Source: Escherichia coli
GTDB lineage: Bacteria > Pseudomonadota > Gammaproteobacteria > Enterobacterales > Enterobacteriaceae
NCBI RefSeq assembly: GCF_016026235.1
Contig: NZ_CP065613.1
Length of the DNA stretch: 64,000 bases
Direction: 5' to 3' (one strand)
The notes under the pieces: model-generated
The model's input: the letters and a program-made list of their open reading frames with translations, nothing else
Databases searched by the model: none
Told to the model about the DNA's origin: nothing
Program-made: the position numbers and the translations under genes
Shown: positions 14,684 through 56,129 of the stretch, piece after piece
How positions within the stretch are numbered: the first letter of the stretch is position 1
Layout of the letters: every line of letters begins with the position of its first letter

Positions 14684-14698
14684 GCAGAAATTTGCTCG

Positions 14699-14745: not shown

Positions 14746-14760
14746 TTTGAGGAAAGGGTT

Positions 14761-15344: not shown

Positions 15345-15414
15345 TGTTACTAACTCACTTCTATTCTGGTCACAGGTTTCCACCTGACAGACCCGCAATT
15401 TTCAGGACAATTCA

Positions 15415-16206: not shown

Positions 16207-16418
16207 GGGAATTACGCGGTCAAGCGCCATTTGTGTCATTTTTTAAATGACAAGCGCTTGATTTGCGTCAAAAACATTTACCCCAAAGGGGCTATTTTCT
16301 CACTCCTGATTTCAATAGTGCGCTGGCGAAGAGGAGGGATAATGAAAGTTTGTGGCACAGGTCATGTTCGGGTATACTGCTTTCCCGTCCTGGTTATTCC
16401 ATCGTCTTTTCAACCTAA

Positions 16419-18071
<1,653 letters not shown>

Positions 18072-18143
18072 GTAAAAAAGTTAGAACGGCAACGCGTACC
18101 CTGGGTACGCGTTGTTTGTCTGGAGTTTCAGTTTAACTAGTGA

Positions 18144-19457
<1,314 letters not shown>

Positions 19458-19482
19458 GACTGACTTTATCTGATTTAAAAAT

Positions 19483-19507
19483 GCCAGCCTCCGGGCTGGC
19501 ATTTTTT
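19483..19507 (+). terminator. Rho-independent terminator after eno
   Basis: Hairpin GCCAGCCTCCGGGCTGGC followed by ATTTTTT. Confidence 0.8.
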
Positions 19508-19516
19508 ATGGTTGAG

Positions 19517-21564: not shown

Positions 21565-21578
21565 ATCAATTCCTTTTG

Positions 21579-22472: not shown

Positions 22473-22485
22473 AGAACTTCCCCGC

Positions 22486-23088
22486 TTAATGAGCACTAGC
22501 ATTCTGGCTAAAATCTATTGTTGGTGCTTTACTCACAGCGGCGACATCATCCGGCAAATAATTTTTCTTTGGTGTGTAATCCATGACCTTTGCGGTTAAC
22601 ACAGCGGGGAATTTGCGGATAGTGACATTATATTGTTCAATGGCTTTAATATATCTTCCTCGCGCAACGGCAATCCGATTTTCACTTCCTTCAAGCTGTA
22701 CCATTAAATTTTGATAGAGTTCCTGAGATTTTAACTCAGGGTAACGCTCACTAATTATCGTTAACTGACCGAGAGTGCGAGTCACCTGCGCTTGAGCCTG
22801 TTGCCAGGCTTGTAATTTTTGTTCATCTCCCGGAGTTTGCTGAAGATCGCTACTGGCGCGATTAGCCTGGCTACGAGCCAATGTTACGGCTTCCAGTACA
22901 TCTCGTTCATGGCTGGAATAACCTTTAATACTGGCGACAAGATTAGGAATAAGATAGGCGCGACGTTGATATTGATTCAATACCTCAGACCAGGAGGCGT
23001 TAACCTGCTCATCATAGGTTTGAATATCGTTATATCCACAGCCTGATAAATTGAAAATAAATATAATTACGATGAATATTCTGAGCAT
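22486..23088 (-). CDS. LemA family protein
   Basis: 200-aa ORF with N-terminal hydrophobic segment and LemA-like core (RRAYLIPNLVASIKGYSSHERDVLEAVTLARSQA...RYPELKSQELYQNLMVQLEGSENRIAVARGRY); first gene of an apparent operon with the TPM genes, divergent from queE. Confidence 0.7.
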   Translation of the reverse strand: MLRIFIVIIFIFNLSGCGYNDIQTYDEQVNASWSEVLNQYQRRAYLIPNLVASIKGYSSHERDVLEAVTLARSQANRASSDLQQTPGDEQKLQAWQQAQAQVTRTLGQLTIISERYPELKSQELYQNLMVQLEGSENRIAVARGRYIKAIEQYNVTIRKFPAVLTAKVMDYTPKKNYLPDDVAAVSKAPTIDFSQNASAH

Positions 23089-23939: not shown

Positions 23940-24270
23940 TTTATAAGCGTTATAAATGGGGGGAACCTGTAAAGACTTCTACTCATTTATATTCTTTGTC
24001 GCCTCTGAAAAAGCTCCATTTTGCCCATCCTGGACTAATCATTATCATTCTCTACAAATTCTGTGGCGTTAATTTTTTGTTGGAGTGAAAATTATTGCGG
24101 TAAAGTTTGGTAGATTTTAGTTTGTATAGAATTATTTTAAATATTTACCTTTTTAATCAATGAGTTAAGTGCTCTTTAACATAATGGATGTGTTGTTTGT
24201 GTGATACTGTAAAGTTGGTAGATTGTGACTGGCTTAAAAAATCATTAATTAATAATAGGTTATGTTTAGA
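23940..24270 (+). promoter_or_regulatory. AT-rich CRISPR leader
   Basis: AT-rich non-coding stretch ending ...CTGGCTTAAAAAATCATTAATTAATAATAGGTTATGTTTAGA directly abutting the first repeat. Confidence 0.65.
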
Positions 24271-24521
24271 GAGTTCCCCGCGCCAGCGGGGATAAACCGA
24301 TGACAAAAATTTGCAGGTGCTGGCAGAGGCCGAGTTCCCCGCGCCAGCGGGGATAAACCGTCAGGTGGGATGGTCAGCGCGAAACACACGCCGAGTTCCC
24401 CGCGCCAGCGGGGATAAACCGAGCGCGCAGTTATCAGCCGCGACAACATGAAAGAGTTCCCCGCGCCAGCGGGGATAAACCGCTCATATACGTTACAGCG
24501 TCGGAAATGGAGGCGAGTTCC

Positions 24522-34785: not shown

Positions 34786-36585
34786 ATGACGACACAGGTC
34801 CCACCTTCCGCGTTGCTTCCGTTGAACCCGGAGCAACTGGCACGCCTTCAGGCGGCCACGACCGATTTAACTCCCACCCAGCTTGCCTGGGTTTCTGGCT
34901 ATTTCTGGGGCGTGCTCAATCAGCAGCCTGCTGCGCTTGCAGCAACGCCAGCGCCAGCCGCAGAAATGCCGGGTATAACTATTATCTCCGCCTCGCAAAC
35001 CGGCAATGCGCGCCGGGTTGCTGAAGCATTACGTGATGATTTATTAGCGGCAAAACTGAACGTTAAGCTGGTGAACGCGGGCGACTATAAATTCAAACAA
35101 ATCGCCAGCGAAAAACTGCTTATCGTGGTGACGTCAACGCAAGGAGAAGGGGAACCGCCGGAAGAAGCCGTCGCGCTGCATAAGTTCCTGTTCTCCAAAA
35201 AAGCGCCGAAGCTGCAAAACACCGCATTTGCCGTGTTTAGCCTCGGCGATAGCTCTTATGAATTTTTCTGCCAGTCCGGGAAAGATTTTGACAGCAAGCT
35301 GGCGGAACTGGGCGGTGAACGCCTGCTCGACCGTGTCGATGCCGACGTTGAATACCAGACCGCTGCCAGCGAGTGGCGCGCTCGCGTGGTTGATGCGCTT
35401 AAATCGCGTGCGCCTGTCGCGGCACCTTCGCAATCCGTCGCTACTGGCGCGGTAAATGAAATCCACACCAGCCCGTACAGCAAAGACTCGCCGCTGGTGG
35501 CGAGCCTCTCTGTTAACCAGAAAATTACCGGGCGTAACTCTGAAAAAGACGTTCGCCATATCGAAATTGACTTAGGTGACTCGGGCCTGCGTTACCAGCC
35601 GGGTGACGCGCTGGGCGTCTGGTATCAGAACGATCCGGCACTGGTGAAAGAACTTGTCGAACTGCTGTGGCTGAAAGGCGATGAACCTGTCACCGTCGAG
35701 GGCAAAACGTTGCCTCTGAACGAAGCGCTACAGTGGCACTTCGAACTGACCGTCAACACCGCCAATATTGTTGAGAACTATGCCACGCTTACCCGCAGCG
35801 AAACGCTGTTGCCGCTGGTGGGCGATAAAGCGAAGTTACAGCATTACGCCGCGACTACGCCGATTGTCGATATGGTGCGCTTCTCTCCGGCGCAACTGGA
35901 CGCCGAAGCGCTGATTAATCTGCTGCGCCCGCTGACGCCGCGTCTCTATTCCATCGCCTCCTCGCAGGCGGAAGTCGAGAACGAAGTACACGTCACCGTT
36001 GGTGTGGTGCGTTACGACGTGGAAGGCCGCGCCCGTGCCGGTGGTGCCTCCAGCTTCCTCGCGGACCGCGTGGAAGAAGAGGGCGAAGTTCGCGTATTTA
36101 TCGAACATAACGATAACTTCCGCCTGCCCGCTAACCCGGAAACCCCGGTGATTATGATTGGCCCAGGCACCGGCATCGCGCCGTTCCGCGCCTTTATGCA
36201 GCAGCGCGCCGCTGACGAAGCGCCGGGTAAAAACTGGCTGTTCTTTGGCAACCCGCATTTTACGGAAGATTTCCTCTACCAGGTGGAGTGGCAGCGCTAC
36301 GTCAAAGAGGGCGTGCTGACACGTATCGATCTCGCCTGGTCGCGCGATCAAAAAGAAAAAGTTTACGTACAAGACAAACTGCGCGAACAGGGCGCGGAGC
36401 TGTGGCGCTGGATCAATGACGGTGCCCACATTTATGTCTGCGGCGACGCTAATCGCATGGCGAAAGACGTTGAGCAGGCACTTCTGGAAGTGATTGCCGA
36501 ATTTGGTGGCATGGACACCGAAGCGGCGGATGAATTTTTAAGTGAGCTGCGCGTAGAGCGCCGTTATCAGCGAGATGTCTACTAA
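34786..36585 (+). CDS. cysJ: sulfite reductase [NADPH] flavoprotein alpha subunit CysJ
   Basis: 599-aa ORF with flavodoxin-like and FAD/NADPH-binding regions. Confidence 0.96.
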
Positions 36586-38297
36586 TGAGCGAAAAACATC
36601 CAGGGCCTTTAGTGGTCGAAGGAAAACTGACAGACGCCGAGCGCATGAAGCTTGAAAGCAACTACCTGCGCGGCACCATTGCGGAAGATTTAAACGACGG
36701 TCTGACCGGCGGCTTTAAGGGCGACAACTTCCTGCTGATCCGCTTCCACGGCATGTATCAGCAGGATGACCGCGACATCCGCGCCGAACGTGCTGAACAG
36801 AAGCTGGAGCCGCGCCACGCGATGCTGTTGCGCTGCCGTCTGCCGGGTGGGGTGATTACCACTAAACAGTGGCAGGCGATCGACAAATTTGCCGGTGAAA
36901 ACACCATCTATGGCAGCATTCGCCTGACCAACCGCCAGACGTTTCAGTTCCACGGCATTCTGAAAAAGAACGTCAAACCGGTGCACCAGATGCTGCACTC
37001 GGTCGGTCTTGATGCGCTGGCGACCGCTAACGACATGAACCGTAACGTACTCTGCACCTCGAACCCTTACGAGTCGCAGCTACACGCGGAAGCGTATGAA
37101 TGGGCGAAGAAAATCTCTGAACATCTGCTGCCGCGTACCCGCGCGTATGCGGAGATCTGGCTCGATCAGGAAAAAGTCGCCACCACCGATGAAGAACCGA
37201 TCCTCGGCCAGACCTACCTGCCGCGTAAATTCAAAACCACGGTAGTGATCCCGCCACAGAACGATATCGATCTGCACGCCAACGACATGAACTTCGTGGC
37301 AATCGCCGAAAACGGCAAGCTGGTGGGCTTTAACCTGCTGGTGGGCGGTGGGCTTTCCATCGAACACGGCAACAAGAAAACCTACGCCCGCACCGCGAGT
37401 GAGTTTGGCTATCTGCCGCTGGAGCATACGCTGGCAGTGGCGGAAGCCGTCGTGACAACTCAGCGTGACTGGGGTAACCGAACCGATCGTAAAAATGCCA
37501 AAACCAAATACACGCTGGAGCGCGTGGGGGTTGAGACGTTTAAAGCGGAAGTGGAGCGTCGCGCGGGGATCAAATTCGAGCCGATTCGCCCGTATGAGTT
37601 TACCGGACGCGGAGATCGTATTGGCTGGGTTAAGGGCATTGATGATAACTGGCACCTGACGCTGTTTATCGAAAATGGTCGCATCCTTGATTATCCGGGG
37701 CGTCCGCTGAAAACCGGCCTGCTGGAGATCGCGAAGATCCACAAAGGCGATTTCCGCATTACGGCGAACCAGAATCTGATCATCGCCGGTGTGCCGGAAA
37801 GCGAGAAAGCGAAGATCGAGAAGATCGCTAAAGAGAGCGGGTTAATGAATGCCGTCACGCCGCAGCGTGAAAACTCAATGGCCTGCGTGTCATTCCCGAC
37901 TTGCCCGCTGGCGATGGCGGAAGCGGAGCGTTTCCTGCCGTCTTTTATCGACAACATCGATAATTTAATGGCGAAACATGGTGTCAGCGATGAGCATATC
38001 GTGATGCGTGTAACAGGCTGCCCGAACGGTTGTGGTCGCGCGATGCTGGCGGAAGTGGGCCTGGTGGGTAAAGCGCCGGGTCGCTACAACCTGCATCTTG
38101 GCGGCAACCGTATTGGGACACGTATCCCACGGATGTATAAAGAAAACATCACCGAGCCGGAAATCCTGGCGTCGCTTGATGAACTGATAGGGCGCTGGGC
38201 GAAAGAGCGCGAAGCGGGTGAAGGCTTCGGCGACTTTACGGTGCGTGCGGGCATCATTCGCCCGGTGCTCGATCCGGCGCGCGATTTGTGGGATTAA
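36585..38297 (+). CDS. cysI: sulfite reductase hemoprotein beta subunit CysI
   Basis: 570-aa [39 protein letters not shown]...; start overlaps the cysJ stop. Confidence 0.96.
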
Positions 38298-38313
38298 CCA
38301 TCAGCCCGGTCTT

Positions 38314-38350
38314 GTAGGCCTGATAAGACGCGTGAGCGTCGCATCAGGCA
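38314..38350. repeat. REP element in the cysI-cysH intergenic region
   Basis: GTAGGCCTGATAAGACGCGTGAGCGTCGCATCAGGCA. Confidence 0.75.
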
Positions 38351-38370
38351 AGGCAAACAGTGAGGAATCT

Positions 38371-39105
38371 ATGTCCAAACTCGATCTAAACGCCCTGAAC
38401 GAACTGCCGAAGGTAGATCGCATTCTGGCGCTGGCGGAAACTAACGCCCAACTGGAAAAACTGGACGCTGAAGGCCGCGTAGCTTGGGCGCTGGATAATC
38501 TGCCCGGTGAATATGTACTTTCTTCCAGCTTTGGCATTCAGGCGGCGGTGAGCCTGCATCTGGTGAATCAAATTCGCCCGGATATTCCGGTGATCCTCAC
38601 CGATACCGGTTACTTGTTCCCGGAAACCTACCGCTTTATTGACGAGTTAACGGACAAACTCAAGCTCAACCTGAAAGTGTACCGTGCTACCGAAAGCGCA
38701 GCCTGGCAGGAAGCACGCTACGGAAAACTGTGGGAACAGGGCGTTGAAGGCATTGAAAAGTACAATGACATCAACAAAGTCGAACCGATGAACCGGGCGC
38801 TGAAAGAACTTAACGCGCAAACGTGGTTTGCTGGCCTGCGCCGTGAACAATCCGGCAGCCGCGCCAATTTACCGGTGCTGGCAATTCAGCGTGGCGTATT
38901 TAAAGTGCTGCCGATTATCGACTGGGATAACCGAACGATATATCAGTATCTGCAAAAGCATGGCCTGAAATATCACCCATTATGGGACGAAGGATATTTA
39001 TCGGTGGGCGATACCCATACAACCCGTAAATGGGAACCCGGCATGGCGGAAGAAGAAACGCGTTTCTTTGGCTTAAAAAGGGAATGTGGGTTACACGAAG
39101 GGTAA
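38371..39105 (+). CDS. cysH: phosphoadenosine phosphosulfate reductase CysH
   Basis: 244 aa from [43 protein letters not shown]... Confidence 0.95.
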
Positions 39106-39368
39106 ATATTGCCGGATAAATTAAACGCCTCTGTCAGAAATGATGGGGGCGTTTTTATTTTGCGAGCAGCATTCCTGATTTTAAACGTGAACGCCGCTGG
39201 AAGAATTATCAGGTATAGAATGGCGTCGGGTGCTTGAGGCTGTCTGGCGTTAAGCATTCGCGAGGTTCCAGATGGACAAAAGCCCCAGGCGATATTTCTA
39301 TCAACCTGAGGCTCGCGTTCGAACGTAGCAATTCGAATGTTAGTCTCTTCTTTGCAGGGAGGCAAGAC

Positions 39369-39521
39369 ATGCTGACAAAATATGCCCTTGTGGCAATCAT
39401 AGTGCTGTGTTTTACAGTACTGGGATTCACGCTGATGGTAGGCGACTCGTTGTGTGAGTTGAGTATCAGAGAACGTGGTATGGAGTTTAAGGCTGTTCTC
39501 GCTTACGAATCGAAGAAGTAG
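39369..39521 (+). CDS. Hok/Gef-family type I toxin-like small membrane protein, 50 aa
   Basis: [51 protein letters not shown]-terminal TM helix plus Hok-family signature SLCEL-IR...A-LAYES-K (compare Hok ...[25 protein letters not shown], from memory); GGGAGG Shine-Dalgarno 6 nt upstream. Confidence 0.75.
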
Positions 39522-39542
39522 CCACCACGCGGGGGTAAAACC

Positions 39543-40303
39543 CCTGAGGAATCCCCAGAAAACAAGACAGGCATAGTGAGATGTGATCTAATTGATTGTG
39601 CTAACAATTTCAAGGAGATCACCACTATGCCTGCACGTTCATTATGCCAAAATTTCCTTAACAATATACTGGCCCCTTTGCATCTTTACCGTCAAAAATC
39701 ACTGATTGACGCAACTAATGCTGTAATAAATGGCGCTTCCCTCACACTTACCAGTATCGGGCGTCATTTAACCGGTACGGCATCAGTTAAAAACAAAATA
39801 AAGCGGGTGGATCGACTGTTGGGGAATCGACATTTGCAAAATGAGGTTTCCACCATTTTTCAGCGAATTACCCAAAAGATTACGCGGGGAATGTCTCGTG
39901 TTGTGATACTCATTGACTGGAGTGCTTATCATGCCTCTCGTTTTCAGCTTTTGCGGGCAAGCCTGGCATGTGACGGGCGTTCTTTACCGTTGATGAGTTG
40001 TGTCGTTCCATCATCACAGACAGCGAATGCAGATGTACATGAGCGTTTTCTGGAATCGCTTGCTGAGTGCTTTTCCCCCGGGACTGATGTCATTGTTATT
40101 ACAGATGCCGGTTTTCAGGGGCGATGGTTCCAACAGCTCCGCTCCCGTGGCTGGACCTATATTTGCCGGGTACTGGGCAATCATTATTACAATGTTGGTA
40201 ATGGCTGGGAAAAGGTGTCGGACTCAGGCACAAAAGCATCAACGACAGCAATTTATTTAGGTGAAGGCCTGCTGGGTCGAGATAAAAATGCACAACATGA
40301 AGG
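39543..40303 (+). mobile_element. IS10-like insertion sequence (copy 3), left 761 bp only, truncated by IS4
   Basis: Begins CCTGAGGAATCCCCAGAAAACAAGACAGG 22 bp after the Hok-like stop; transposase frame (MPARSL... from 39627) is identical to copy 1 through ...KNAQHEG, then IS4 begins at 40304. Confidence 0.85.
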
Positions 40304-41729
40304 TAATGCCGATCAGTTAAGGATCAGTTGACCGATCCAGTGGCTGTGTAAGAATCCGGAAACGCTCACTTGTTTCCGGATTTTTTTATGCACATTGGAC
40401 AGGCTCTTGATCTGGTATCCCGTTACGATTCTCTGCGTAACCCACTGACTTCTCTGGGGGATTACCTCGACCCCGAACTCATCTCTCGTTGCCTTGCCGA
40501 ATCAGGTACTGTAACGCTACGCAAGCGCCGTCTTCCCCTCGAAATGATGGTCTGGTGTATTGTTGGCATGGCGCTTGAGCGTAAAGAACCTCTTCACCAG
40601 ATTGTGAATCGCCTGGACATCATGCTGCCGGGCAATCGCCCCTTCGTTGCCCCCAGTGCCGTTATTCAGGCCCGCCAGCGCCTGGGAAGTGAGGCTGTCC
40701 GCCGCGTGTTCACGAAAACAGCGCAGCTCTGGCATAACGCCACGCCGCATCCGCACTGGTGCGGCCTGACCCTGCTGGCCATCGATGGTGTGTTCTGGCG
40801 CACACCGGATACACCAGAGAACGATGCAGCCTTCCCCCGCCAGACACATGCCGGGAACCCGGCGCTCTACCCGCAGGTCAAAATGGTCTGCCAGATGGAA
40901 CTGACCAGCCATCTGCTGACGGCTGCAGCCTTCGGCACGATGAAGAACAGCGAAAATGAGCTTGCTGAGCAACTTATAGAACAAACCGGCGATAACACTC
41001 TGACGTTAATGGATAAAGGTTATTACTCACTGGGACTGTTAAATGCCTGGAGCCTGGCGGGAGAACACCGCCACTGGATGATACCTCTCAGAAAGGGAGC
41101 GCAATATGAAGAGCTCAGAAAACTGGGTAAAGGCGATCATCTGGTGAAGCTGAAAACCAGCCCGCAGGCACGAAAAAAGTGGCCGGGACTGGGAAATGAA
41201 GTGACAGCCCGCCTGCTGACCGTGACGCGCAAAGGAAAAGTCTGCCATCTGCTGACGTCGATGACGGACGCCATGCGCTTCCCCGGAGGAGAAATGGCGG
41301 ATCTGTACAGTCATCGCTGGGAAATCGAACTGGGATACAGGGAGATAAAACAGACGATGCAACTGAGCAGGCTGACGCTGAGAAGTAAAAAGCCGGAGCT
41401 TGTGGAGCAAGAGCTGTGGGGTGTCTTACTGGCTTATAATCTGGTGAGATATCAGATGATTAAAATGGCGGAACATCTGAAAGGTTACTGGCCGAATCAA
41501 CTGAGTTTCTCAGAATCATGCGGAATGGTGATGAGAATGCTGATGACATTGCAGGGCGCTTCACCGGGACGTATACCGGAGCTGATGCGCGATCTTGCAA
41601 GTATGGGACAACTTGTGAAATTACCGACGAGAAGGGGAAGGGCCTTCCCGAGAGTGGTAAAGGAGAGGCCCTGGAAATACCCCACAGCCCCGAAAAAGAG
41701 CCAGTCAGTTGCTTAACTGACTGGCATTA
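40304..41729 (+). mobile_element. IS4, 1426 bp, complete, no target duplication
   Basis: Termini TAATGCCGATCAGTTAAGGATCAGTTGACCG ... CTTAACTGACTGGCATTA; length matches IS4 from memory. Left flank is IS10-like interior, right flank is lysS 3' intergenic; flanks are unrelated. Confidence 0.9.
40388..41716 (+). CDS. insG: IS4 transposase InsG
   Basis: [40 protein letters not shown]... about 442 aa. Confidence 0.9.
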
Positions 41730-41764
41730 CGACATTTGCCGGGGTTATGAGCATAACGTAATGC

Positions 41765-43282
41765 TTATTTCACCGGACGCATCGCCGGGAACAGAATAAC
41801 ATCGCGGATGGTATGGCTGTTGGTGAACAGCATTACCATACGGTCGATACCAATCCCCAGACCTGCTGTCGGCGGTAAGCCATGTTCCAGTGCGGTAACG
41901 TAATCTTCATCGTAGAACATCGCTTCGTCGTCACCTGCGTCTTTCGCGGCAACCTGATCCAGGAAGCGTTGCGCCTGATCTTCCGCGTCATTCAGCTCGC
42001 TAAAGCCGTTACCGATTTCACGACCACCGATGAAGAACTCAAAGCGGTCTGTGATTTCCGGGTTAATGTCGTTACGACGCGCCAGCGGAGAAACTTCTGC
42101 CGGATATTCAGTAATAAAGGTCGGCTGAATCAGATGTGCTTCTGCCACTTCTTCGAAGATCTCGGTAACGATACGGCCCAGACCCCAGCTCTTCTCAACG
42201 TGGATACCGATAGATTCAGCAATCGCTTTCGCAGAGTCGAAGTTATCCAGATCCGCCATGTCGGTTTCTGGGCGATATTTCTTGATCGCTTCACGCATGG
42301 TCAGTTTTTCGAACGGTTTACCGAAGTCCAGCGTCACGTCGCCGTAGGTCACTTCCGTCTTACCGAGAATATCCTGTGCCAGAGTACGGAACAGCGATTC
42401 GGTCAGCTCGATCAGATCTTTGTAATCTGCGTAAGCCATGTAGAGTTCCATCATGGTGAACTCTGGGTTATGACGTACGGAGATACCTTCGTTACGGAAG
42501 TTACGGTTGATTTCGAATACACGCTCGAAGCCACCGACCACCAGACGCTTGAGGTACAGTTCCGGCGCGATACGCAGGTACATGTCGAGATCCAGCGCGT
42601 TATGGTGGGTGATAAACGGACGCGCAGCGGCACCGCCAGGGATCACCTGCATCATCGGCGTTTCAACTTCCATAAAGCCGCGGTTCACCATGAACTGGCG
42701 AATACCAGAGAGGATCTGCGAGCGTACTTTAAAGGTGTTACGGGATTCATCGTTAGAGATGAGATCCAAATAACGCTGACGATAGCGCGCTTCCTGATCC
42801 TGCAAGCCGTGGAATTTATCCGGCAGCGGACGCAGTGCTTTGGTCAGCAGACGCAGCTCGGTACAGTGGATAGACAGTTCGCCGGTTTTGGTTTTGAACA
42901 GTTTACCTTTCGCGCCGAGGATGTCGCCGAGGTCCCATTTTTTGAACTGCTCGTTGTAAACGCCTTCCGGCAGATCGTCACGGGCAACGTACAGCTGAAT
43001 GCGGCCCCCCACATCCTGCAGGGTAACGAAAGACGCTTTACCCATAATACGACGGGTCATCATGCGGCCAGCAACGGCGACTTCGATGTTCAGCGCTTCC
43101 AGTTCTTCGTTCTCTTTACCGTCGAATTCTGCGTGCAATTGGTCAGAGGTATGATCGCGACGGAAATCGTTCGGGAAGGCAATCCCCTGCTCGCGCAGGT
43201 TCACCAGCTTCTCACGACGCGTTTTCAGTTCATTGTTAAGATCGACTACCGCGTCAGCGCCCTGTGCGTGTTGTTCAGACAT
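41765..43282 (-). CDS. lysS: lysine--tRNA ligase LysS
   Basis: 505-aa [47 protein letters not shown]... Confidence 0.96.
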
Positions 43283-43291
43283 GTTGGTTCC

Positions 43292-44390
43292 TCATAACCC
43301 TGCTTTCAAACTTGCTTCGATAAATTGATCCAGGCTGCCGTCCAGCACGGCCTGCGTGTTGCGGGTTTCTACCCCGGTACGCAGATCTTTAATGCGGGAG
43401 TCATCAAGGACATAAGAACGAATCTGGCTGCCCCAGCCGATGTCAGATTTGTTATCTTCCATCGCCTGTTTCTCAGCATTTTTCTTCTGCATCTCCAGTT
43501 CATAAAGCTTCGCTTTCATCTGCTTCATGGCCTGGTCTTTGTTCTTGTGCTGGGAACGGTCGTTCTGGCACTGGGTCACGATCCCGGTCGGGATGTGGGT
43601 AATACGCACCGCAGATTCGGTACGGTTAACGTGCTGACCGCCCGCGCCGGACGCGCGATAAACGTCAATGCGCAGATCCGCCGGGTTGATTTCGATATCA
43701 ATATCATCATCAACTTCCGGATAAACAAACGCGGAGCTGAACGACGTGTGGCGACGACCGCCGGAGTCAAACGGGCTTTTACGCACCAGGCGGTGAACGC
43801 CGGTTTCTGTACGCAGCCAGCCGTAAGCGTAATCGCCGGAGATTTTGATAGTCACGGATTTAATACCCGCCACTTCACCTTCCGACTCTTCGATGATTTC
43901 AGTTTTGAAACCACGCGATTCTGCCCAGCGCAGATACATACGCTCAAGCATGCTCGCCCAGTCCTGTGCTTCCGTACCGCCAGACCCCGCCTGAATATCG
44001 AGGTAGCAGTCGGCGCTGTCATATTCGCCAGAGAACATACGGCGGAACTCAAGCTGCGCCAGTTTTTCTTCCAGGGCGTCGAGTTCAGCAACGGCTTCGT
44101 TAAAGGTTTCTTCGTCGTCAGCTTCTACAGCCAGTTCCAGCAGACCAGAAACATCTTCCAGCCCCTGTTTCATTTGGTCGAGGGTGTCGACAACGGCTTC
44201 GAGGGAGGAACGCTCTTTACCCAGCGCCTGTGCGCGTTCGGGTTCGTTCCAGACATCCGGCTGTTCCAGCTCGGCGTTTACTTCTTCCAGACGCTCTTTC
44301 TTGGCGTCGTAGTCAAAGATACCCCCTAAGAACGTCGGAGCGTTCCGTGAGGTCCTGAATGCGATTATTTACCGGATTAATTTCAAACAT
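43292..44390 (-). CDS. prfB: peptide chain release factor 2 (programmed +1 frameshift)
   Basis: Main frame 43292-44173 (293 aa, ...[16 protein letters not shown]...). N-terminal 25 codons from ATG at 44388-44390 ([25 protein letters not shown]) end at in-frame UGA in context CUU UGA C preceded by AGGGGG. Confidence 0.93.
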
Positions 44391-44480
44391 GGTCTGATTT
44401 CTTTTATTGAGCTAGTCAAAATGCGGTGATAAGAGCGGGATTGTACCCAATCCACGCTCTTTTTTATAGAGAAGATGACG

Positions 44481-46214
44481 CTAAATTGGCCAGATATTGT
44501 CGATGATAATTTGCAGGCTGCGGTTGCCGCGAAACTCGTTGATATCGAGCTTGTAAGCCAGTTGCACTTCGCGCACGCCGTTATCCGGCCAGAGGGCGGT
44601 ATCGACATTAAAAGCAATACCATCCAGCAGTGGACCGCCGCCGACCGGTTCGACCATCACCTTCAAATGACGTTCGCCCACCAGCCGCTGTTGCAGCAGA
44701 CGGAAATGACCGTCAAACAGCGGCTCCGGGAACATCTGCCCCCACGGGCCAGCATCGCGCAGCAGCTGCGCCACTTCCATGGTCATTTCGGCTGGACTTA
44801 ACGGACCGTCTGACACCACTTCGCCTTGCAATAGCGAAGGGTCCAGCCACTCAGTAACCAGTTCGCCAAACCGTTGTTGAAAGAGTTCGAATTTATCCTC
44901 TTCCAGCGACAAACCCGCCGCCATCGCATGACCGCCAAACTTCAGCATCATGCCAGGGTAGAGTGTGTCTAATCGCTCCAGTGCATCACGCATATGCAGC
45001 CCCTGAATGGAGCGACCTGAACCTTTCAGTGTACCATCACCTGCTGGCGCAAAGGCGATAACCGGACGGTGAAAACGCTCTTTGATGCGCGAAGCCAGAA
45101 TACCGACAACGCCCTGATGCCATTCGGGGTGATACATTGCCAGCCCGCCGGGTAGCGAGTCGCGGCTGCGCTCCAGTTTCTCGCACAGGGTCAGGGCTTC
45201 AACTTGCATTCCTTGTTCGATCTCTTTTCGCGTCTGGTTTAGCGCATCGAGTTCATTTGCCAGCACGCGCGCTTCGCCGATGTTGTCGCACAGCAACAGC
45301 GCCACACCGACGGACATATCGTCCAGTCGTCCGGCAGCATTGAGACGTGGCCCCAGCGCAAAACCTAAATCGCTGGCGGCGAGTTTTTGTGCATCACGGT
45401 TTGCCACTTCAAGCAGCGCTTTAATCCCCGGACGGCACTTTCCGGCTCGGATGCGACTCATCCCCTGCCAGGTCAGAATGCGATTATTAGCGTCCAGCGG
45501 CACGACGTCCGCCACTGTCCCCAGCGCGACCAGATCCAGCAGTTCTGCCAGGTTAGGAATTGCGATGTTACGCTCATCAAACCAGCCCTGATCGCGCAAA
45601 AAGGTGCGCAGCGCCAGCATCAGATAAAACGCCACACCCACGCCTGCCAGTGATTTCGACGGGAAATTACAGTCGCGCAAGTTAGGGTTAATGATCGCTT
45701 CCGCTGCGGGTAATGTGTCGCCTGGCAAATGGTGATCGGTAACAATAACCGGGATGCCCAACGAGCGAGCGTGCTCAACCCCCGCATGGGAGGAAATACC
45801 GTTATCCACCGTGACAATTAACTGCGCGCCACGGGCATGGGCCTGATCGACCACTTCCGGGCTTAAGCCGTAACCGTCTTCGAAACGGTTTGGTACCAGG
45901 TAGTCGATATTGCTGCAACCAAGCGAGCGCATCGCCAGCACGCTTAGAGCCGTGCTGGTCGCACCGTCGGCGTCGAAATCACCGACCACAATAATCCGCG
46001 TTCCTTCGCGAAAAGCGTTGTAAAGGATCTCAACGGCCTTTTCGACGCCGCTCAGTTGCTGCCAGGGCAACATACCTTTAACACTGCGTTCCAGTTCTTG
46101 CGCACTGCGTACTCCCCGGCTGGCGTATAAACGGCGCAGCAAGGGAGGCAATTCAGCGGGCAAGTCTGCCGTTTCATCGACTTCACGGCGACGAAGTTGT
46201 ATCTGTTGTTTCAC
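44481..46214 (-). CDS. recJ: single-stranded-DNA-specific exonuclease RecJ
   Basis: 577-aa ORF with DHH motifs. Confidence 0.95.
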   Translation of the reverse strand: MKQQIQLRRREVDETADLPAELPPLLRRLYASRGVRSAQELERSVKGMLPWQQLSGVEKAVEILYNAFREGTRIIVVGDFDADGATSTALSVLAMRSLGCSNIDYLVPNRFEDGYGLSPEVVDQAHARGAQLIVTVDNGISSHAGVEHARSLGIPVIVTDHHLPGDTLPAAEAIINPNLRDCNFPSKSLAGVGVAFYLMLALRTFLRDQGWFDERNIAIPNLAELLDLVALGTVADVVPLDANNRILTWQGMSRIRAGKCRPGIKALLEVANRDAQKLAASDLGFALGPRLNAAGRLDDMSVGVALLLCDNIGEARVLANELDALNQTRKEIEQGMQVEALTLCEKLERSRDSLPGGLAMYHPEWHQGVVGILASRIKERFHRPVIAFAPAGDGTLKGSGRSIQGLHMRDALERLDTLYPGMMLKFGGHAMAAGLSLEEDKFELFQQRFGELVTEWLDPSLLQGEVVSDGPLSPAEMTMEVAQLLRDAGPWGQMFPEPLFDGHFRLLQQRLVGERHLKVMVEPVGGGPLLDGIAFNVDTALWPDNGVREVQLAYKLDINEFRGNRSLQIIIDNIWPI

Positions 46215-46219
46215 GCGAA

Positions 46220-46930
46220 TTATTTACCGCTGGTCATTTTTTGGTGTTCGTCGAGGAATTCTTTCATCTCTTTCGGCGGCTGGTAACCCGGAACAAGTGT
46301 GCCATTGCTCAGCACAACTGCCGGAGTACCGCTAACGCCAAGCTGGACGCCAAGTGCGTAATGGTCGGCAATATCCACGTCGCAGCTGGCTGGTGCGACG
46401 CTTTTACCTGCCATCACATCATCAAACGCTTTGTTTTTATCTTTCGCACACCAGATAGCTTTCATTTCTTTCTCTGCATCGCTGTCCAGCCCCTGGCGCG
46501 GGAAAGCAAGATAACGCACGGTGATCCCCAGCGCGTTATAGTCTGCCATTTGCTCATGCAGTTTGTGGCAGTAACCACAGGTAATATCAGTAAACACGGT
46601 GATGACGTGTTTTTCCTGCGGCGCTTTATAAACGATCATCTCTTTTTCAAGCGCATTCAACTGCTTTAACAGCATCTTATTGGTGACATTGACCGGAGCC
46701 GTGCCGCTAACGTCATACATTGGCCCCTGAATGATATGTTTACCATCATCGGTGATGTACAACACGCCGCTGTTAGTCAGAACTGTCTTCATGCCAGCTA
46801 CGGGCGCGGGCTGAATATCGCTGCTTTTGATGCCCATTTTGGCTAACGTTTGTTGAATTGCCGCGTCATCAGCCTGAGCAAAACCTGAAAACGCTGCTAA
46901 CAAAGTAAACAACATAAAACCTTTCTTCAT
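46220..46930 (-). CDS. dsbC: thiol:disulfide interchange protein DsbC
   Basis: 236-aa ORF with signal peptide and CGYC active site. Confidence 0.95.
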   Translation of the reverse strand: MKKGFMLFTLLAAFSGFAQADDAAIQQTLAKMGIKSSDIQPAPVAGMKTVLTNSGVLYITDDGKHIIQGPMYDVSGTAPVNVTNKMLLKQLNALEKEMIVYKAPQEKHVITVFTDITCGYCHKLHEQMADYNALGITVRYLAFPRQGLDSDAEKEMKAIWCAKDKNKAFDDVMAGKSVAPASCDVDIADHYALGVQLGVSGTPAVVLSNGTLVPGYQPPKEMKEFLDEHQKMTSGK

Positions 46931-46954
46931 AAATCTTCCCGTTCTTTTCAGACA

Positions 46955-47851
46955 TCACGCCCGCGGGTGATGCTGTTGATGAAGTTGCCGCAGACGCTCG
47001 GTAGCGACATGCGTATAAATTTGCGTGGTGGAGAGATCGCTGTGGCCCAGTAGCATCTGCACCACGCGTAAATCCGCACCATGATTTAATAAATGAGTGG
47101 CAAAAGCGTGACGCAACACATGCGGTGACAGCTTTTCGCTGTCGATACCCGCCAGCACGGCATAATGTTTAATACGGTGCCAGAAGGTCTGTCGCGTCAT
47201 CTGCTGCGCACGCTGGCTGGGAAACAACACGTCAATTGACACACCATTCAGCAGCCACGGACGCCCATGTTCCAGATAGGTCTCCAACCAGTAAACCGCC
47301 TCTTCACCTAACGGCACCAGGCGCTCTTTGTTGCCTTTACCAATGACCCGCACTACGCCCTGACGCAGGCTGATATCACTCATTGTCAGTCCGACCAGTT
47401 CAGAGACACGCAGCCCGGTAGCATACAACACTTCAAGCATGGCTTTATCGCGTAGCTCCAGTGGCTGATCAATTAATGGTGCCTGTAATAAACGTTCAAC
47501 CTGCGCTTCGCTTAAATCTTTTGGCAAACGCTGGGGCAATTTCGGTGAAGCGAGATGCGCACTGGGATCGTCTTCACGAAACTTTTCGCGATAAAGATAC
47601 TGGAACAATCGGCGCACTGCACTCAGCAAACGCGCTGAGCTGGTGGCTTTATACCCGCCCTCCAGCCGTTCTGCCAGTAATGCCTGCAAATCGTCACTTT
47701 GCGCCGTCGCCAGCGTCAACCCGCGGTGATGCAACCACTCCACCATCATTGACAGATCGCGACGGTAAGCGTTCAACGTATTTTCAGCCAGATTTTTTTC
47801 CAGCCACAGAGCATCAAGAAACTGCTCGATGCGTGCCAGATCCTGTTTCAC
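46955..47851 (-). CDS. xerD: tyrosine recombinase XerD
   Basis: 298-aa ORF MKQDLARIEQFLDALWLEKNLAENTLNAYRRDL... with the conserved R-H-R-Y tyrosine recombinase residues. Confidence 0.95.
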   Translation of the reverse strand: MKQDLARIEQFLDALWLEKNLAENTLNAYRRDLSMMVEWLHHRGLTLATAQSDDLQALLAERLEGGYKATSSARLLSAVRRLFQYLYREKFREDDPSAHLASPKLPQRLPKDLSEAQVERLLQAPLIDQPLELRDKAMLEVLYATGLRVSELVGLTMSDISLRQGVVRVIGKGNKERLVPLGEEAVYWLETYLEHGRPWLLNGVSIDVLFPSQRAQQMTRQTFWHRIKHYAVLAGIDSEKLSPHVLRHAFATHLLNHGADLRVVQMLLGHSDLSTTQIYTHVATERLRQLHQQHHPRA

Positions 47852-47962
47852 TTGCGCCCCTTATGGTCACTCATTTGATCCATTATGCCTTATTGTGCCG
47901 TGACTAAAGCGATTCTGATACACTAGCTGCAAAAGCCACAGCAGAATCGAGAAGCTTACGTT

Positions 47963-48484
47963 ATGAATATGGGTCTTTTTTACGGTTCCAGCACCTGTTA
48001 CACCGAAATGGCGGCAGAAAAAATCCGCGATATTATCGGCCCAGAACTGGTGACCTTACATAACCTCAAGGACGACTCCCCGAAATTAATGGAGCAGTAC
48101 GATGTGCTCATTCTGGGTATCCCGACCTGGGATTTTGGTGAAATCCAGGAAGACTGGGAAGCCGTCTGGGATCAGCTCGACGACCTGAACCTTGAAGGTA
48201 AAATTGTTGCGCTGTATGGGCTTGGCGATCAACTGGGATACGGCGAGTGGTTCCTCGATGCGCTCGGTATGCTGCATGACAAACTCTCGACCAAAGGCGT
48301 GAAGTTCGTCGGCTACTGGCCAACGGAAGGATATGAATTTACCAGCCCGAAACCGGTGATTGCTGACGGGCAACTGTTCGTGGGTCTGGCGCTGGATGAA
48401 ACTAACCAGTATGACCTTAGCGACGAGCGTATTCAGAGCTGGTGCGAGCAAATCCTCAACGAAATGGCAGAGCATTACGCCTGA
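47963..48484 (+). CDS. fldB: flavodoxin 2 FldB
   Basis: 173-aa [38 protein letters not shown]... Confidence 0.93.
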
Positions 48485-48523
48485 TCTCACTGACGGCTTA
48501 GCGCATATGCTTTGCCGTCATCT

Positions 48524-49190
<667 letters not shown>

Positions 49191-49420
49191 TCACGAAAAT
49201 CCAGTACCAGGGTATTGTAACGTGTTTTTCGACTTCTTTTACGGGAATATCAGTAAACACAATCGCGATCGCGAAATTAATTCACAACAATTCAAGGGCT
49301 TCATTTTTTTGGAAGTCGCCTCGCAGAAGGCACAGATCGCGTAGTGAAAGCACTTGCATTGCCTCATAGCTCTTTTACCATTAGTTATTAATACGCCGTT
49401 AAGCAACTCAGGACTCTATT

Positions 49421-50401
49421 ATGGCTTTTACACCTTTTCCTCCACGTCAGCCTACGGCTTCTGCCCGTTTACCGCTGACGCTGATGACGCTTGATGACTG
49501 GGCGCTTGCCACCATTACTGGCGCGGACAGCGAAAAATATATGCAGGGCCAGGTGACAGCAGATGTCAGCCAGATGACAGAAAATCAGCACCTGCTCGCC
49601 GCCCATTGCGACGCCAAAGGTAAAATGTGGAGCAATTTACGTCTGTTCCGCGACGGCGATGGCTTTGCGTGGATTGAACGGCGCAGCGTGCGTGAATCGC
49701 AGCTGACTGAACTGAAAAAATATGCGGTGTTCTCTAAAGTGACCATCGCGCCAGACGACGAGCGTGTGCTGCTTGGTGTTGCCGGTTTTCAGGCGCGCGC
49801 CGCGCTGGCTAATCTCTTTAGTGAACTACCTTCGAGAGAAAAACAGGTAGTTAAAGAAGGCGCGACCACTTTGCTATGGTTTGAACACCCGGCAGAACGT
49901 TTCCTGATCGTAACCGATGAAGCTACTGCCAATATGCTGACCGATAAACTGCGCGGTGAAGCGGAACTGAACAATAGCCAACAGTGGCTGGCATTAAACA
50001 TTGAAGCGGGTTTCCCGGTGATTGATGCCGCCAACAGCGGGCAGTTTATTCCACAGGCGACCAATCTCCAGGCGCTGGGCGGTATCAGCTTTAAGAAAGG
50101 CTGCTATACCGGACAAGAGATGGTGGCGCGAGCAAAATTCCGTGGTGCCAACAAACGCGCGCTCTGGTTGCTGACAGGTAGTGCCAGCCGACTGCCGGAA
50201 GCTGGTGAAGACTTAGAGCTGAAAATGGGCGAGAACTGGCGTCGTACCGGTACGGTGCTGGCTGCGGTAAAACTGGAAGATGGTCAGGCCGTGGTACAGG
50301 TCGTCATGAATAACGATATGGAACCGGACAGCATCTTCCGCGTGCGTGACGATGCGAATACACTGCATATCGAACCGCTGCCGTATTCGCTCGAAGAGTA
50401 A
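49421..50401 (+). CDS. ygfZ: tRNA-modifying folate-binding protein YgfZ
   Basis: 326-aa [52 protein letters not shown]... Confidence 0.92.
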
Positions 50402-50410
50402 ATCTCTGTA

Positions 50411-50465
50411 TCGCATCAGGCATTTATCGCCTGATGCGACGCTGGCGCGTCTTATCAGGCCTACA
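50411..50465. repeat. REP-type palindromic elements after ygfZ
   Basis: TCGCATCAGGCATTTATCGCCTGATGCGA followed by CGCTGGCGCGTCTTATCAGGCCTAC. Confidence 0.7.
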
Positions 50466-50477
50466 AAGGCATACCCA

Positions 50478-51140
<663 letters not shown>

Positions 51141-51300
51141 TTACTCCGGAGAAACGTACACGCACATGTATACCTCTCCAGCGTAACTGAGAATAGTTCC
51201 AGTGAACACCTGTTAGCTAAAATAAATTCTGATTTGAGACTAATCTCCTAAAAATCATGAAATTAAATGCGAAATTTCAACTAACAGGCGTGAGTTCAAT

Positions 51301-51612
51301 TTAAAGACATTTAAATTCAATCACATAAAACTGTGTCTGACCGGGATAGATGTCGGCAATGACCTTTTTCAGTTCAGTCAGGGTCATATTTTCCTGCTCT
51401 GCATGTTTTTCCGTCAGCGTATCCAGCGTTACGGTTGAGGTTGCGGTGACTTCAATCGTGCAAAAATAACCGTCATCTTCAAAACGCCCGACACAAAGCA
51501 CATCACCCGTTTTGAAGTGCGATTCAGACTCGTCGCGGATGGTGATGGTTTTACGCCCAGCCAGAATGTCATCCTGGAAACGTTGAAAAAAAGTGATGTC
51601 GTTTGGCTGCAT
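51301..51612 (-). CDS. yqfB: ASCH-domain protein YqfB
   Basis: 103-aa [36 protein letters not shown]... Confidence 0.88.
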
Positions 51613-51629
51613 GGTACTATTTCCTGTAA

Positions 51630-53090
<1,461 letters not shown>

Positions 53091-53211
53091 TTAGCCGATG
53101 TGCCTGATGCGATACGCTCATCAGGCCTGGCACTCTTTTAATATATTGAGCTCGCAAGATTTTATATTACGCCTCAGCCGAAACACACAAAGCGCACTTT
53201 ATTAACAAGCT

Positions 53212-53236
53212 AAAAAGGCGCCGAAGCGCCTTTAGA
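53212..53236. terminator. bidirectional terminator hairpin between convergent bglA and gcvP
   Basis: AAAAAGGCGCCGAAGCGCCTTT palindrome flanked by A-run and T-run; REP-like sequence lies just upstream at about 53097-53130. Confidence 0.7.
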
Positions 53237-53255
53237 AGATAGTCGAATCAGTGAA

Positions 53256-56129
53256 TTACTGGTATTCGCTAATCGGTACGCAGGAGCAGAACAGGTTACG
53301 GTCGCCGTAAACATCATCCAGACGTTTCACTGTCGGCCAGTATTTGTCTGCCACGCCTGCCGGGAATACCGCAACTTCACGGCTGTACGGATGCGCCCAC
53401 TCGGCGACCAGTTCGTTCTGAATGTGCGGCGCGTTCACCAGCGGGTTATCTTCCAGCGGCCAGACACCGGCTTTAACCTGGTCGATTTCTGCGCGGATAG
53501 CCAGCATCGCGTCGATAAAGCGATCCAGTTCCACTTTGCTTTCAGATTCAGTCGGTTCAACCATCAGCGTACCCGCCACCGGGAACGACATCGTCGGCGC
53601 GTGGAAACCGTAGTCGATCAGGCGCTTGGCAATATCCAGCTCGCTGATGCCGGTTTCTTCTTTCAGCGGGCGAATATCGAGAATACATTCGTGCGCCACG
53701 CGACCGTCGCGACCGGTATACAGCACCGGGAAGGCATCCTGCAGGCGGCTGGCAATATAGTTGGCGTTGAGGATTGCCACCTGGCTTGCTTTTTTCAGCC
53801 CTTCTGCGCCCATCATGCGGATGTACATCCAGCTGATTGGCAGGATAGAGGCGCTACCGAACGGTGCCGCAGAAACTGCGCCCTGACGGGTTAACATGCC
53901 TTCGATTTGCACCACGCTATGACCCGGTACAAACGGTGCCAGATGCGCTTTCACACCGATCGGTCCCATACCCGGACCACCACCGCCGTGCGGAATGCAG
54001 AAAGTTTTATGCAGGTTGAGGTGCGAAACGTCCGCGCCAATAAAGCCCGGCGAGGTGATGCCAACCTGGGCGTTCATGTTCGCGCCATCAAGGTAAACCT
54101 GACCGCCGAACTGATGCACGACTTCACACACTTCACGGATCGTTTCTTCATACACGCCGTGGGTAGAAGGATAAGTCACCATGATACAGGAGAGGTTATC
54201 GCCCGCCTGTTCCGCTTTCGCGCGCAGATCAGTCAGATCGATGTTGCCGTTTTTATCACACGCCACAACCACCACCTGCATTCCTGCCATATGTGCAGAA
54301 GCGGGGTTAGTTCCGTGCGCAGAAGCCGGGATCAGGCAGATATCGCGATGCCCTTCGTTGCGGCTTTCATGATAATGACGAATCGCCAGCAGGCCCGCGT
54401 ATTCGCCCTGTGCGCCGGAGTTCGGCTGCATACAAACGGCGTCGTAACCGGTCAGTTTCACCAGCCAGTCAGCCAGCTGCGCAATCATCTGCTGATAACC
54501 TTCAGCCTGTTCCGGCGGACAAAACGGGTGCAGTTCGGCAAATTCCGGCCAGGTGATTGGGATCATCTCGGCGGCGGCGTTCAGTTTCATGGTGCAGGAA
54601 CCCAGCGGGATCATCGCCTGATTCAGCGCCAGATCTTTACGCTCCAGCGAGTGCATATAGCGCATCATTTCGGTTTCGCTGTGGTAGCGATTAAACACCG
54701 GATGGGTGAGGATTTCGTCGTCGCGCAGCATCGCAGGCTGGATAGAGCGGCTGTCGTGAGCCACGTCTTTGTCCAGCGTGTCGATGTCCAGGCCGTGGTT
54801 ATCGCCCAGCAGCACGTTGAAAAGCTGCATTACGTTTTCACGCGTGGTTGTTTCATCAAGGGTGATCCCAACCGCGTTCAGAATATCGCTACGCAGGTTG
54901 ATTTCAGCCGCTTCGGCACGCGTCAGTACGCCCGCTTTGTCGGCCACTTCCACACACAAGGTGTCGAAATAGTGCGCATGGCGCAGTTTCAGACCTTTTT
55001 GTTGCAGGCCCGCCGCCAGGATATCGGTCAGACGGTGAATGCGGTTAGCGATACGTTTCAGGCCAACCGGGCCGTGATAAACGGCATACAGGCTGGCGAT
55101 GTTTGCCAGCAGTACCTGGGAAGTACAAATGTTGGAGTTCGCTTTCTCACGGCGGATATGTTGCTCGCGAGTCTGCATCGCCATGCGCAGCGCGGTATTG
55201 CCAGCTGCATCTTTCGATACACCGATAATACGGCCCGGCATTGAGCGTTTGTATTCATCTTTCGCCGCAAAGAATGCCGCGTGTGGGCCACCGTAGCCCA
55301 TCGGCACGCCGAAGCGTTGCGCCGAACCAAAAACAATATCCGCGCCCTGTTTACCCGGCGCAGTTAACAGCACCAGCGCCATAATATCGGCGGCAACGCT
55401 GACCACAATTTTGCGTGATTTCAGTTCGCTAATAAGCGCAGTGTAGTCGTGAATTTCACCGGTAGTGCCTACCTGCTGTAACAGCACGCCGAAGACGTCC
55501 TGATGGTCGAGCACTTTTTGCGCGTCATCGACAATCACTTCAAAACCAAAGGTTTCGGCACGAGTACGGACCACATCCAGCGTTTGCGGATGCACATCGG
55601 AAGCCACGAAGAAGCGGTTGGCATTTTTCAGTTTGCTGACGCGTTTCGCCATCGCCATTGCTTCGGCGGCAGCGGTGGCCTCGTCCAGAAGAGAAGCAGA
55701 GGCCATATCCAGTCCAGTCAAATCCAGCGTTACCTGCTGGAAGTTGAGCAGTGCTTCAAGGCGGCCCTGGGAGACTTCAGGTTGATACGGAGTGTACGCG
55801 GTATACCAGCCCGGATTTTCCAGCATGTTACGCAGGATAACCGGCGGTAGCTGCACGGCGGTGTAACCCATGCCGATGTAAGACGTGAAGCGTTTATTGC
55901 GACTGGCAATAGCCTTGAGTTCTGCCAGTGCGGCGTATTCGGTCGCCGGTGCGCCAACCTGCGGCGGGGTCGCAAGCTGAATATCTTTCGGTACAATCTG
56001 GCCGGTCAGCGCGTTTAACGATTGTGCGCCAACGGCATTCAGCATTTCTTGCTGTTGCGCGGCGTCCGGTCCGATATGGCGTTCAATAAAAGCGCCGCTG
56101 TTTTCAAGCTGGCTTAACGTCTGTGTCAT
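53256..56129 (-). CDS. gcvP: glycine dehydrogenase (decarboxylating), glycine cleavage P protein
   Basis: 957-aa [41 protein letters not shown]... Confidence 0.97.

Follow-up and report, generated by a model that had tools for sequence, protein, structure and literature searches.

The stretch of Escherichia coli DNA considered here (the window; 64,000 nucleotides of contig NZ_CP065613.1, assembly GCF_016026235.1) contains a junction at which cysH is separated from lysS by a hok-family toxin gene and two insertion sequences (IS). One of these is the 5' part of ISEc60, an IS10-like element of the IS4 family; the other is a complete IS4. The junction is best read, with about an even chance that this was the actual history, as the lysS-side end of an inversion of approximately 126 kb (cysH to xdhD and the beginning of xanQ, hereafter xanQ') whose arms were two inverted copies of ISEc60, combined with an IS4-mediated deletion. 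The inversion as such is real, since comparison of assemblies makes an erroneous join very unlikely. A sequence-only reading of the window had already recognised a junction bounded by IS4, the lack of a target duplication around it, and flanks formed by a truncated IS10-like element on one side and by the 35 bp from the lysS stop codon on the other. All this was confirmed. Its proposal that two inverted IS4 copies served as the recombining repeats was not: two ISEc60 copies, inverted relative to each other, bound the inverted segment, and recombination between inverted IS4 copies could have occurred only as the earlier of two steps.

Two junctions and the segment between them

According to BLAST, window positions 1-19598 and 32881-39371 correspond to K-12 positions 2,926,101 down to 2,887,311 in reverse orientation. 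Positions 41730-64000 correspond to K-12 3,033,622 up to 3,056,913 in forward orientation, so that the downstream block follows the K-12 order and orientation, as had been noticed. In K-12 cysH (2,887,578-2,888,312) and lysS (3,033,657-3,035,174) are separated by 145 kb, close to the earlier estimate of about 150 kb. The cumulative GC skew climbs until approximately 42 kb of the window and declines beyond, which counts as support for an inversion. Native adjacency of cysH and lysS is ruled out: when 5,426 complete E. coli genomes were searched for a single place covering 80% or more of window 38400-42600, none had one. The observation of an unusual junction stands.

The chimeric ISEc60/IS4 open reading frame (ORF) of 234 amino acids that spans the junction was used as a junction-specific probe for an exact-match look-up. 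It is encoded on UGFA01000002.1, a contig of 4.56 Mb from assembly GCA_900449985.1, where 20.7 kb are 100% identical to window 29627-50331 (the position on this contig equals 3,784,384 - w for window position w). Look-ups of the lineage-specific Iap and split Cas3 proteins located the reciprocal junction on the same contig, with the order ygfK-ssnA-ygfM-xdhD-xanQ (first 56 nt)-full ISEc60-cas3 (split)-cse1..cas2-iap-cysDNC-..rpoS. The ISEc60 at this place is 1294 bp long and encodes a transposase of 396 amino acids. Neither IS4 nor idi is present at the reciprocal junction on UGFA01000002.1. Thus the expectation that the cas operon would lie at the reciprocal junction was borne out, and the expected remainder of the IS10-like element, followed by IS4 and idi, gave way to xdhD, the first 56 nt of xanQ, a full ISEc60 and cas3.

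The ISEc60 stump of the window junction (UGFA01000002.1 3,744,081-3,744,840, minus strand) and the full ISEc60 (3,870,614-3,871,907, plus strand) are mutually inverted and 125.8 kb apart. Along this contig the K-12 coordinates descend from serA to lysS, ascend from cysH to xanQ' and descend again from cas3 to rpoS. Descending flanks with an ascending middle correspond to an inversion of K-12 2,887.3-3,024.4 kb. Deletion alone is rejected, as both flanks share one K-12 direction and the segment between them runs in the opposite one. The inverted segment thus extends from cysH to xanQ', 137 kb in K-12 and 125.8 kb here, and not from cysH to idi, as an inversion of about 150 kb would have implied. 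The initial preference for inversion over deletion was justified by the reciprocal junction some 126 kb away, and it was incomplete, since a deletion is present as well: K-12 3,024,407-3,033,621 (about 9.2 kb), containing the rest of xanQ, guaD, ghxQ, ygfS, ygfT, uacT, yqfG, yqfH and idi, is absent from both junctions.

Relatives retain the states that preceded the rearrangement. On the cysH side, the window and E. coli FDAARGOS_943 share 99.96% identity; in the latter, a full ISEc60 (copy A) lies between cysJIH-hok and iap. In GCA_901482675.2, copy A lies between hok and an intact cas3. In other E. coli genomes, obtained via a Cse1 look-up whose results did not include the megabase-scale relatives, hok adjoins cas3 without interruption, with the empty site GCGGGGGTAAAACCCCGCG. 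The empty hok/cas3 site reads ...GCGGGGGTAAAACCCCGCGTATTG, the window reads ...GGGGGTAAAACCC followed by ISEc60, and the cas3 side reads ISEc60 followed by GGGTAAAACCCCGCGTATTG. Indeed, joining the sequence 5' of the window ISEc60, GGGGGTAAAACCC, to that 3' of the cas3-side copy, GGGTAAAACCCCGCG, restores the empty site GCGGGGGTAAAACCCCGCG, of which 11 bp are duplicated. On its 5' side, the cas3-side copy has exactly the flank of xanQ::ISEc60 (copy B) of FDAARGOS_943, an insertion that retains its complete 10-bp duplication AGGATCGCCC and beside which the remaining part of xanQ is still present. The duplication of copy A is therefore divided, its left half being in the window and its right half beside cas3; the reciprocal junction has the left flank of copy B, the right flank of which went with the deletion. 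The segment between copies A and B of FDAARGOS_943, which form inverted repeats at a distance of 134 kb, has the uninverted K-12 arrangement. Such exchanged duplications, together with the uninverted state of FDAARGOS_943, are the pattern expected of a reciprocal homologous exchange between pre-existing insertions, not of a junction made by a transposase. On the other side, GCA_017137395.1, which has the same RecJ allele, contains lysS and idi without IS4 (5 mismatches in 13.5 kb).

The IS4 at the junction has no target duplication of 11-13 bp, and its left flank ACAACATGAAGG and right flank CGACATTTGCCG are dissimilar. Hence this copy, which is still IS4, is a product of recombination or fusion. 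Other IS4 copies have 12-bp duplications, and both parental sites are documented in this form. Four unrelated E. coli match the join of IS4 with lysS, with site and orientation unchanged. In the one of these four that was examined, GCUET01, the order is idi-CGACATTTGCCG-IS4-CGACATTTGCCG-lysS with a 12-bp duplication; CGACATTTGCCG is present once in K-12. The pINV plasmid of strain VL7S7 carries a complete IS4 at the ISEc60 site, in the opposite orientation and with a 12-bp duplication offset by one base. The two sites were never seen occupied in one lineage. A single IS4 with one half of each parental duplication at its ends is what a deletion between direct IS4 copies leaves behind.

The sequence-only reading had left room for an assembly join, in which the assembler would have reversed or wrongly connected what lies between inverted repeats. 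In that case the real genome would contain the 9.2-kb deletion alone (xanQ5'-ISEc60 stump-IS4-lysS) and an uninverted cas3-ISEc60-hok region. Multicopy repeats do make up both junctions (2.2 kb and 1.3 kb), and the structure is known from assembled contigs, not from reads. Against this, the same two junctions occur in a second, separately deposited assembly: GCA_031665325.1 has both, approximately 127.7 kb apart, on a contig of 3.45 Mb. Its recJ-prfB-lysS-IS4-ISEc60 stump-hok-cysHIJ region is 100.000% identical to window 35481-55214, and its ygfM-xdhD-ISEc60-cas3-cse1 region is 99.994% identical to UGFA01000002.1. Short-read assemblies of relatives are broken at these IS copies; for instance, a contig of GCA_001907565.1 spans gcvP through lysS and ends 191 bp into IS4. 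This assembly and two further short-read ones of close relatives, GCA_002466675.1 and GCA_001907535.1, have in common with the source either the split cas3 or the join of lysS with IS4. The megabase-scale contigs pass many such copies and thus presumably come from long reads, which easily span repeats of 1.3-2.2 kb. With both junctions recurring in GCA_031665325.1, an assembly artefact is very unlikely.

Order and nature of the exchanges

A single exchange between two IS4 copies is excluded, because the 9.2 kb are missing from both junctions and the reciprocal junction contains neither IS4 nor idi. The genome requires no fewer than two recombination events. The steps of the favoured history are ones that we infer between observed states, namely the final arrangement, the sites of insertion and the structures of relatives. 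Two ISEc60 copies of opposite orientation would already have been in place, copy A in a hairpin between hok and cas3 and copy B at nt 56 of xanQ. Homologous recombination of the RecA type between them would have inverted the intervening segment, so that one end became xanQ5'-ISEc60-cas3 and the other became hok-ISEc60-'xanQ..idi-lysS. IS4 would then have entered two preferred targets in the same orientation, ISEc60 nt 749-760 and the idi-lysS spacer. Finally, recombination between these direct IS4 copies would have deleted the 3' part of ISEc60 and about 9.2 kb from the remainder of xanQ through idi, so that a single IS4 lacking a target duplication remained to connect the ISEc60 stump with lysS. 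It is equally possible that the IS4-mediated deletion occurred first and was followed by an inversion via the 760-bp stump.

Another history, appreciably less likely than the favoured one, starts with IS4. Here two IS4 copies of opposite orientation, one in copy A beside hok and one in the idi-lysS spacer, would have recombined first, inverting cysH..idi. The 3' part of ISEc60 left beside cas3 would then have recombined with copy B, by now in direct orientation, deleting IS4-idi..'xanQ and restoring a full ISEc60. When the orientations are followed through, this gives the observed structures at both junctions, and it explains an IS4 without duplication whose flanks come from two separate loci; moreover, both IS4 targets are demonstrated hot spots. 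However, as the reciprocal junction has no IS4 or idi, this history needs an extra deletion relying on 534 bp of homology, versus the 1426 bp available for the deletion step in the orders that begin or end with an ISEc60 inversion. For this reason the latter are preferred, weakly. No intermediate of the IS4-first route was found, and single-nucleotide polymorphisms do not tell it from the favoured history.

It is also conceivable, at a considerably lower probability, that the fusion was made by the IS4 transposase. A single IS4, residing in one of the two hot spots (ISEc60 or the idi-lysS spacer), would have attacked the other on the same chromosome, and this intramolecular transposition would have deleted the 9.7 kb between them in one step. 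One earlier IS4 insertion would then suffice, and both flanks of IS4 are indeed preferred sequence, AAAAA-NNC followed by the 12-bp core that is duplicated. However, elements of the IS4 family, such as IS10 and IS50, move by cut-and-paste, and adjacent deletions from a single copy are not normal for them. In addition, two direct 1.4-kb repeats 10 kb apart readily recombine.

Several observations weigh against the history based on ISEc60 inversion, or at least against its details. Three event orders, for each of which the orientations were checked, yield the same end product, which does not reveal what the two exchanges were or which came first; in particular, an IS4 x IS4 inversion and a subsequent deletion between direct ISEc60 sequences give an identical structure. 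The ISEc60 copies vary at 5 internal sites only, none of which marks a crossover. No relative with an intermediate structure was found in the XdhD and truncated-XanQ look-ups. The XdhD allele occurs in 53,151 blocks and is uninformative for surveying relatives, and the search with truncated XanQ for an inversion lacking the deletion gave only three short contigs, each ending at the IS. Reversed collinearity was seen at the ends of the segment (39 kb in the window and 8.5 kb at the other junction), the central 78 kb lying outside the comparison, and the absence of the 9.2 kb is established at both junctions, not for the rest of the genome. Finally, GCA_900449985.1 and GCA_031665325.1 may be one strain, as there are 0 mismatches over 19.7 kb.

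Structure of the junction and of the adjacent blocks

The features between cysH and lysS are listed in Table 1.

Table 1. Features at the cysH-lysS junction (window coordinates)
Feature	Position	Strand	Description
cysH	38371..39105	+	end gene of the inverted block; K-12 cysH match in reverse; call of a 244-amino-acid phosphoadenosine phosphosulfate (PAPS) reductase
hok-family type I toxin gene	39369..39521	+	50 amino acids; Pfam HOK_GEF
GGGTAAAACCC	39533..39543	.	left copy of the target duplication of ISEc60 copy A, from empty-site comparison; right copy at the other junction beside cas3
ISEc60 5' part	39544..40303	+	nt 1-760 of 1294; 99.9% identity to annotated ISEc60 copies
Chimeric ORF	39627..40331	+	234 amino acids; N-terminus of the ISEc60 transposase continuing 28 nt into IS4
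IS4, complete	40304..41729	+	fusion point; 1426 bp; transposase 40388-41716; at least 99% nucleotide identity to annotated IS4/insG
CGACATTTGCCG	41730..41741	.	right half of the 12-bp IS4 duplication in the idi-lysS spacer, from comparison with GCUET01; once in K-12
idi-lysS intergenic spacer remnant	41730..41764	.	35 bp; aligned with K-12 and GCUET01
lysS	41765..43282	-	opening gene of the non-inverted flank, in K-12 orientation; ORF list and K-12 match

The ISEc60 stump contains the left inverted repeat CTGAGGAATCCCC, which we take to resemble the end of IS10, and ends exactly at the left end of IS4. It lacks the 3' 534 nt and the right inverted repeat and is thus a truncated member of ISEc60. 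Its transposase is severed after residue 226; the product matches NCBIfam NF033591 with 190 bits over profile positions 1-192 of 340. The adjoining IS4 has terminal inverted repeats of 18/19 nt, the arms GTAATGCCGATCAGTTAAG and CTTAACTGACTGGCATTAC being 89% complementary. The IS4 transposase is intact (442 amino acids, DDE type) and scores 303.8 bits with NCBIfam NF033592, for which the cut-off is 115.

The best NCBIfam match of the hok product is HokA NF007290, at 57.7 bits below its cut-off of 89. The native place of this gene is between cysH and cas3, as the order cysH-hok-cas3 free of IS elements occurs in other E. coli (three retrieved loci).

The IS4 target in the idi-lysS spacer (window 41730-41760, K-12 3,033,614-3,033,640) forms the loop of a short hairpin between runs of A and T (AAAAAACCCCGACATTTGCCGGGGTT). 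This hairpin probably serves as a common terminator for idi and lysS, which are convergent, and the insertion of IS4 splits it into two halves.

The block upstream of the junction was described initially as the exact reverse of K-12, which does not hold. Besides hok, situated between cysH and the stump, it contains two more ISEc60 copies (24523-25816 and 31588-32881), an element of the IS1 family (28480-29248) and 3.4 kb of non-K-12 DNA (19598-23054), and 5.2 kb of K-12 are gone, from the end of ygcN to ygcU. The third ISEc60 copy (31588-32881, minus strand) has no target duplication and stands in place of these 5.2 kb (K-12 2,893,804-2,898,987), which comprise the end of ygcN, ygcO, ygcP, ygcQ, ygcR, ygcS and a part of ygcU; this is a further IS-associated deletion. 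The IS1-family element disrupts yqcE and is 91% identical to an IS1 of FDAARGOS_943. The non-K-12 DNA, located beside eno/ygcG, encodes a LemA-like protein and several paralogous proteins with the TPM domain (YgcG-like), with tails rich in glycine and serine. The queE region near it has an identity of only 91% to K-12.

Several genes close to the reciprocal junction look damaged. There rpoS is called in two pieces (146+ and 179 amino acids), cas3 is called as two overlapping ORFs (378 and 521 amino acids), and cas7 is called with only 205 amino acids, versus 357-363 in relatives. This may be gene decay, or possibly homopolymer errors of assembly.

Target preference, host lineage and significance

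The IS4 insertion site in ISEc60 seems to be used repeatedly. The left junction of IS4 with ISEc60 nt 760 recurs in Logan contigs (five found, of which four were retrieved, 5005 bp each). They contain another IS4 allele, with about 10 differences, and no duplication, and their outer flanks are different, an IS110-family transposase on the left and unrelated sequence on the right. Given this other context and other allele, IS4 at the ISEc60 hot spot took part in rearrangement more than once. The motif AAAAA-NNC precedes three of the examined IS4 target sites, those in idi/lysS, in emrR of CE10 and in ISEc60.

ISEc60 may likewise not be indifferent to its target, as its insertion sites suggest. 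Every left end examined (window 24523, 39544 and 32881; loci L021 8526, L007 4004, L009 1188 and L002 10439) adjoins ...CC, mostly CCC or CCCC. The duplicated targets GCGAGTTCCC, GGAAATTCCC, GGGTAAAACCC and AGGATCGCCC resemble G-N-N-A/T-T-N-CCC, a motif common to the 5' half of the type I-E repeat of clustered regularly interspaced short palindromic repeats (CRISPR) and to small hairpins.

There are three cases of ISEc60 at CRISPR-Cas loci: the copy in a repeat at 24523, copy A beside cas3, and copy A at a repeat-like sequence in the cas-less FDAARGOS_943. A type I-E CRISPR array with repeats GAGTTCCCCGCGCCAGCGGGGATAAACCG and a period of 61 bp lies between queE and ygcE (window 24263-25850), and the full ISEc60 at 24523-25816 is inside one of its repeats, with a 10-bp duplication GCGAGTTCCC. 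In FDAARGOS_943 (L002 9145-10470) the whole cas operon is missing, and copy A adjoins TAGAATTCCCCGCCCCTGCGGTAGAACAC right before iap. This sequence looks like a degenerate CRISPR repeat, which suggests an ISEc60-mediated deletion of cas. One could go further and propose a nested network of hot spots, with IS4 preferring ISEc60 nt 749-760 and ISEc60 preferring G-N-N-A/T-T-N-CCCC at the feet of hairpins, so that IS target preference, and not chance, would largely determine where breakpoints arise and how CRISPR-Cas erodes in enteroinvasive lineages. We consider this generalisation rather improbable.

The IS4 and ISEc60 copies of the window genome are nearly identical to those on pINV plasmids of enteroinvasive E. 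coli (EIEC). Judging by this shared IS content and by the gene decay, the source genome is probably EIEC or Shigella-like. In Shigella and EIEC, genomes are expected to change by IS-mediated inversions and deletions. One study reconstructed 114 inversions among Shigella and E. coli genomes and placed 103 of them on Shigella branches (Seferbekova et al. 2021, PMC8072062). Inversions arise by recombination between inverted repeats, the high rearrangement rate of Shigella is tied to its many IS copies, and pINV-borne elements of the IS3 and IS4 families are expanded on these branches (PMC8072062). The present genome is similar to those of Shigella and EIEC in having a large inversion with inverted copies of one IS at its ends, many IS4-family copies, pseudogenes and small IS-flanked deletions, and in that inverted repeats give inversion and direct repeats give deletion; it differs in that one junction is compound (ISEc60 stump and IS4) because of a superimposed deletion, and in its breakpoints: the pair hok/cas3 and xanQ, together with idi/lysS, occurs in none of the 5,426 complete E. 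coli genomes.

The elements themselves are typical. The window IS4 agrees with the prototype (insG in K-12) in its length of 1426 bp, inverted repeats of 18 nt, DDE transposase of 442 amino acids and use of preferred sites with 12-bp duplications, whereas this particular copy lacks a duplication and is flanked by sequence from two different IS4 target sites. The stump is 99.9% identical over nt 1-760 to ISEc60 (the RefSeq 'IS4-like element ISEc60 family transposase'), but ends at nt 760. Classical repeat-mediated inversions are known in stocks of E. coli K-12, such as the rrnD-rrnE inversion of W3110. The present case is analogous in that the exchange between inverted repeats is reciprocal and no sequence is lost at the exchange; however, the repeats are IS copies of 1.3 kb here and rRNA operons of 5 kb there.

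Thus the junction is an ordinary IS-driven rearrangement, a fresh instance of a well-known process and not a new kind. Its significance is mainly one of bookkeeping: the contig is correctly assembled, and no new question is opened. As the inversion of approximately 126 kb lies within one replichore, judging by the K-12 coordinates, it should reverse the orientation of genes relative to replication, flipping such genes as eno, pyrG and relA with respect to the flanks. A cluster for purine/urate uptake and salvage was lost from the junction, together with idi. The case also calls for caution, as the IS found at a junction is not necessarily the repeat behind the inversion. It adds one more well-resolved example of IS reshuffling in Shigella and EIEC, with both parental states documented in relatives.

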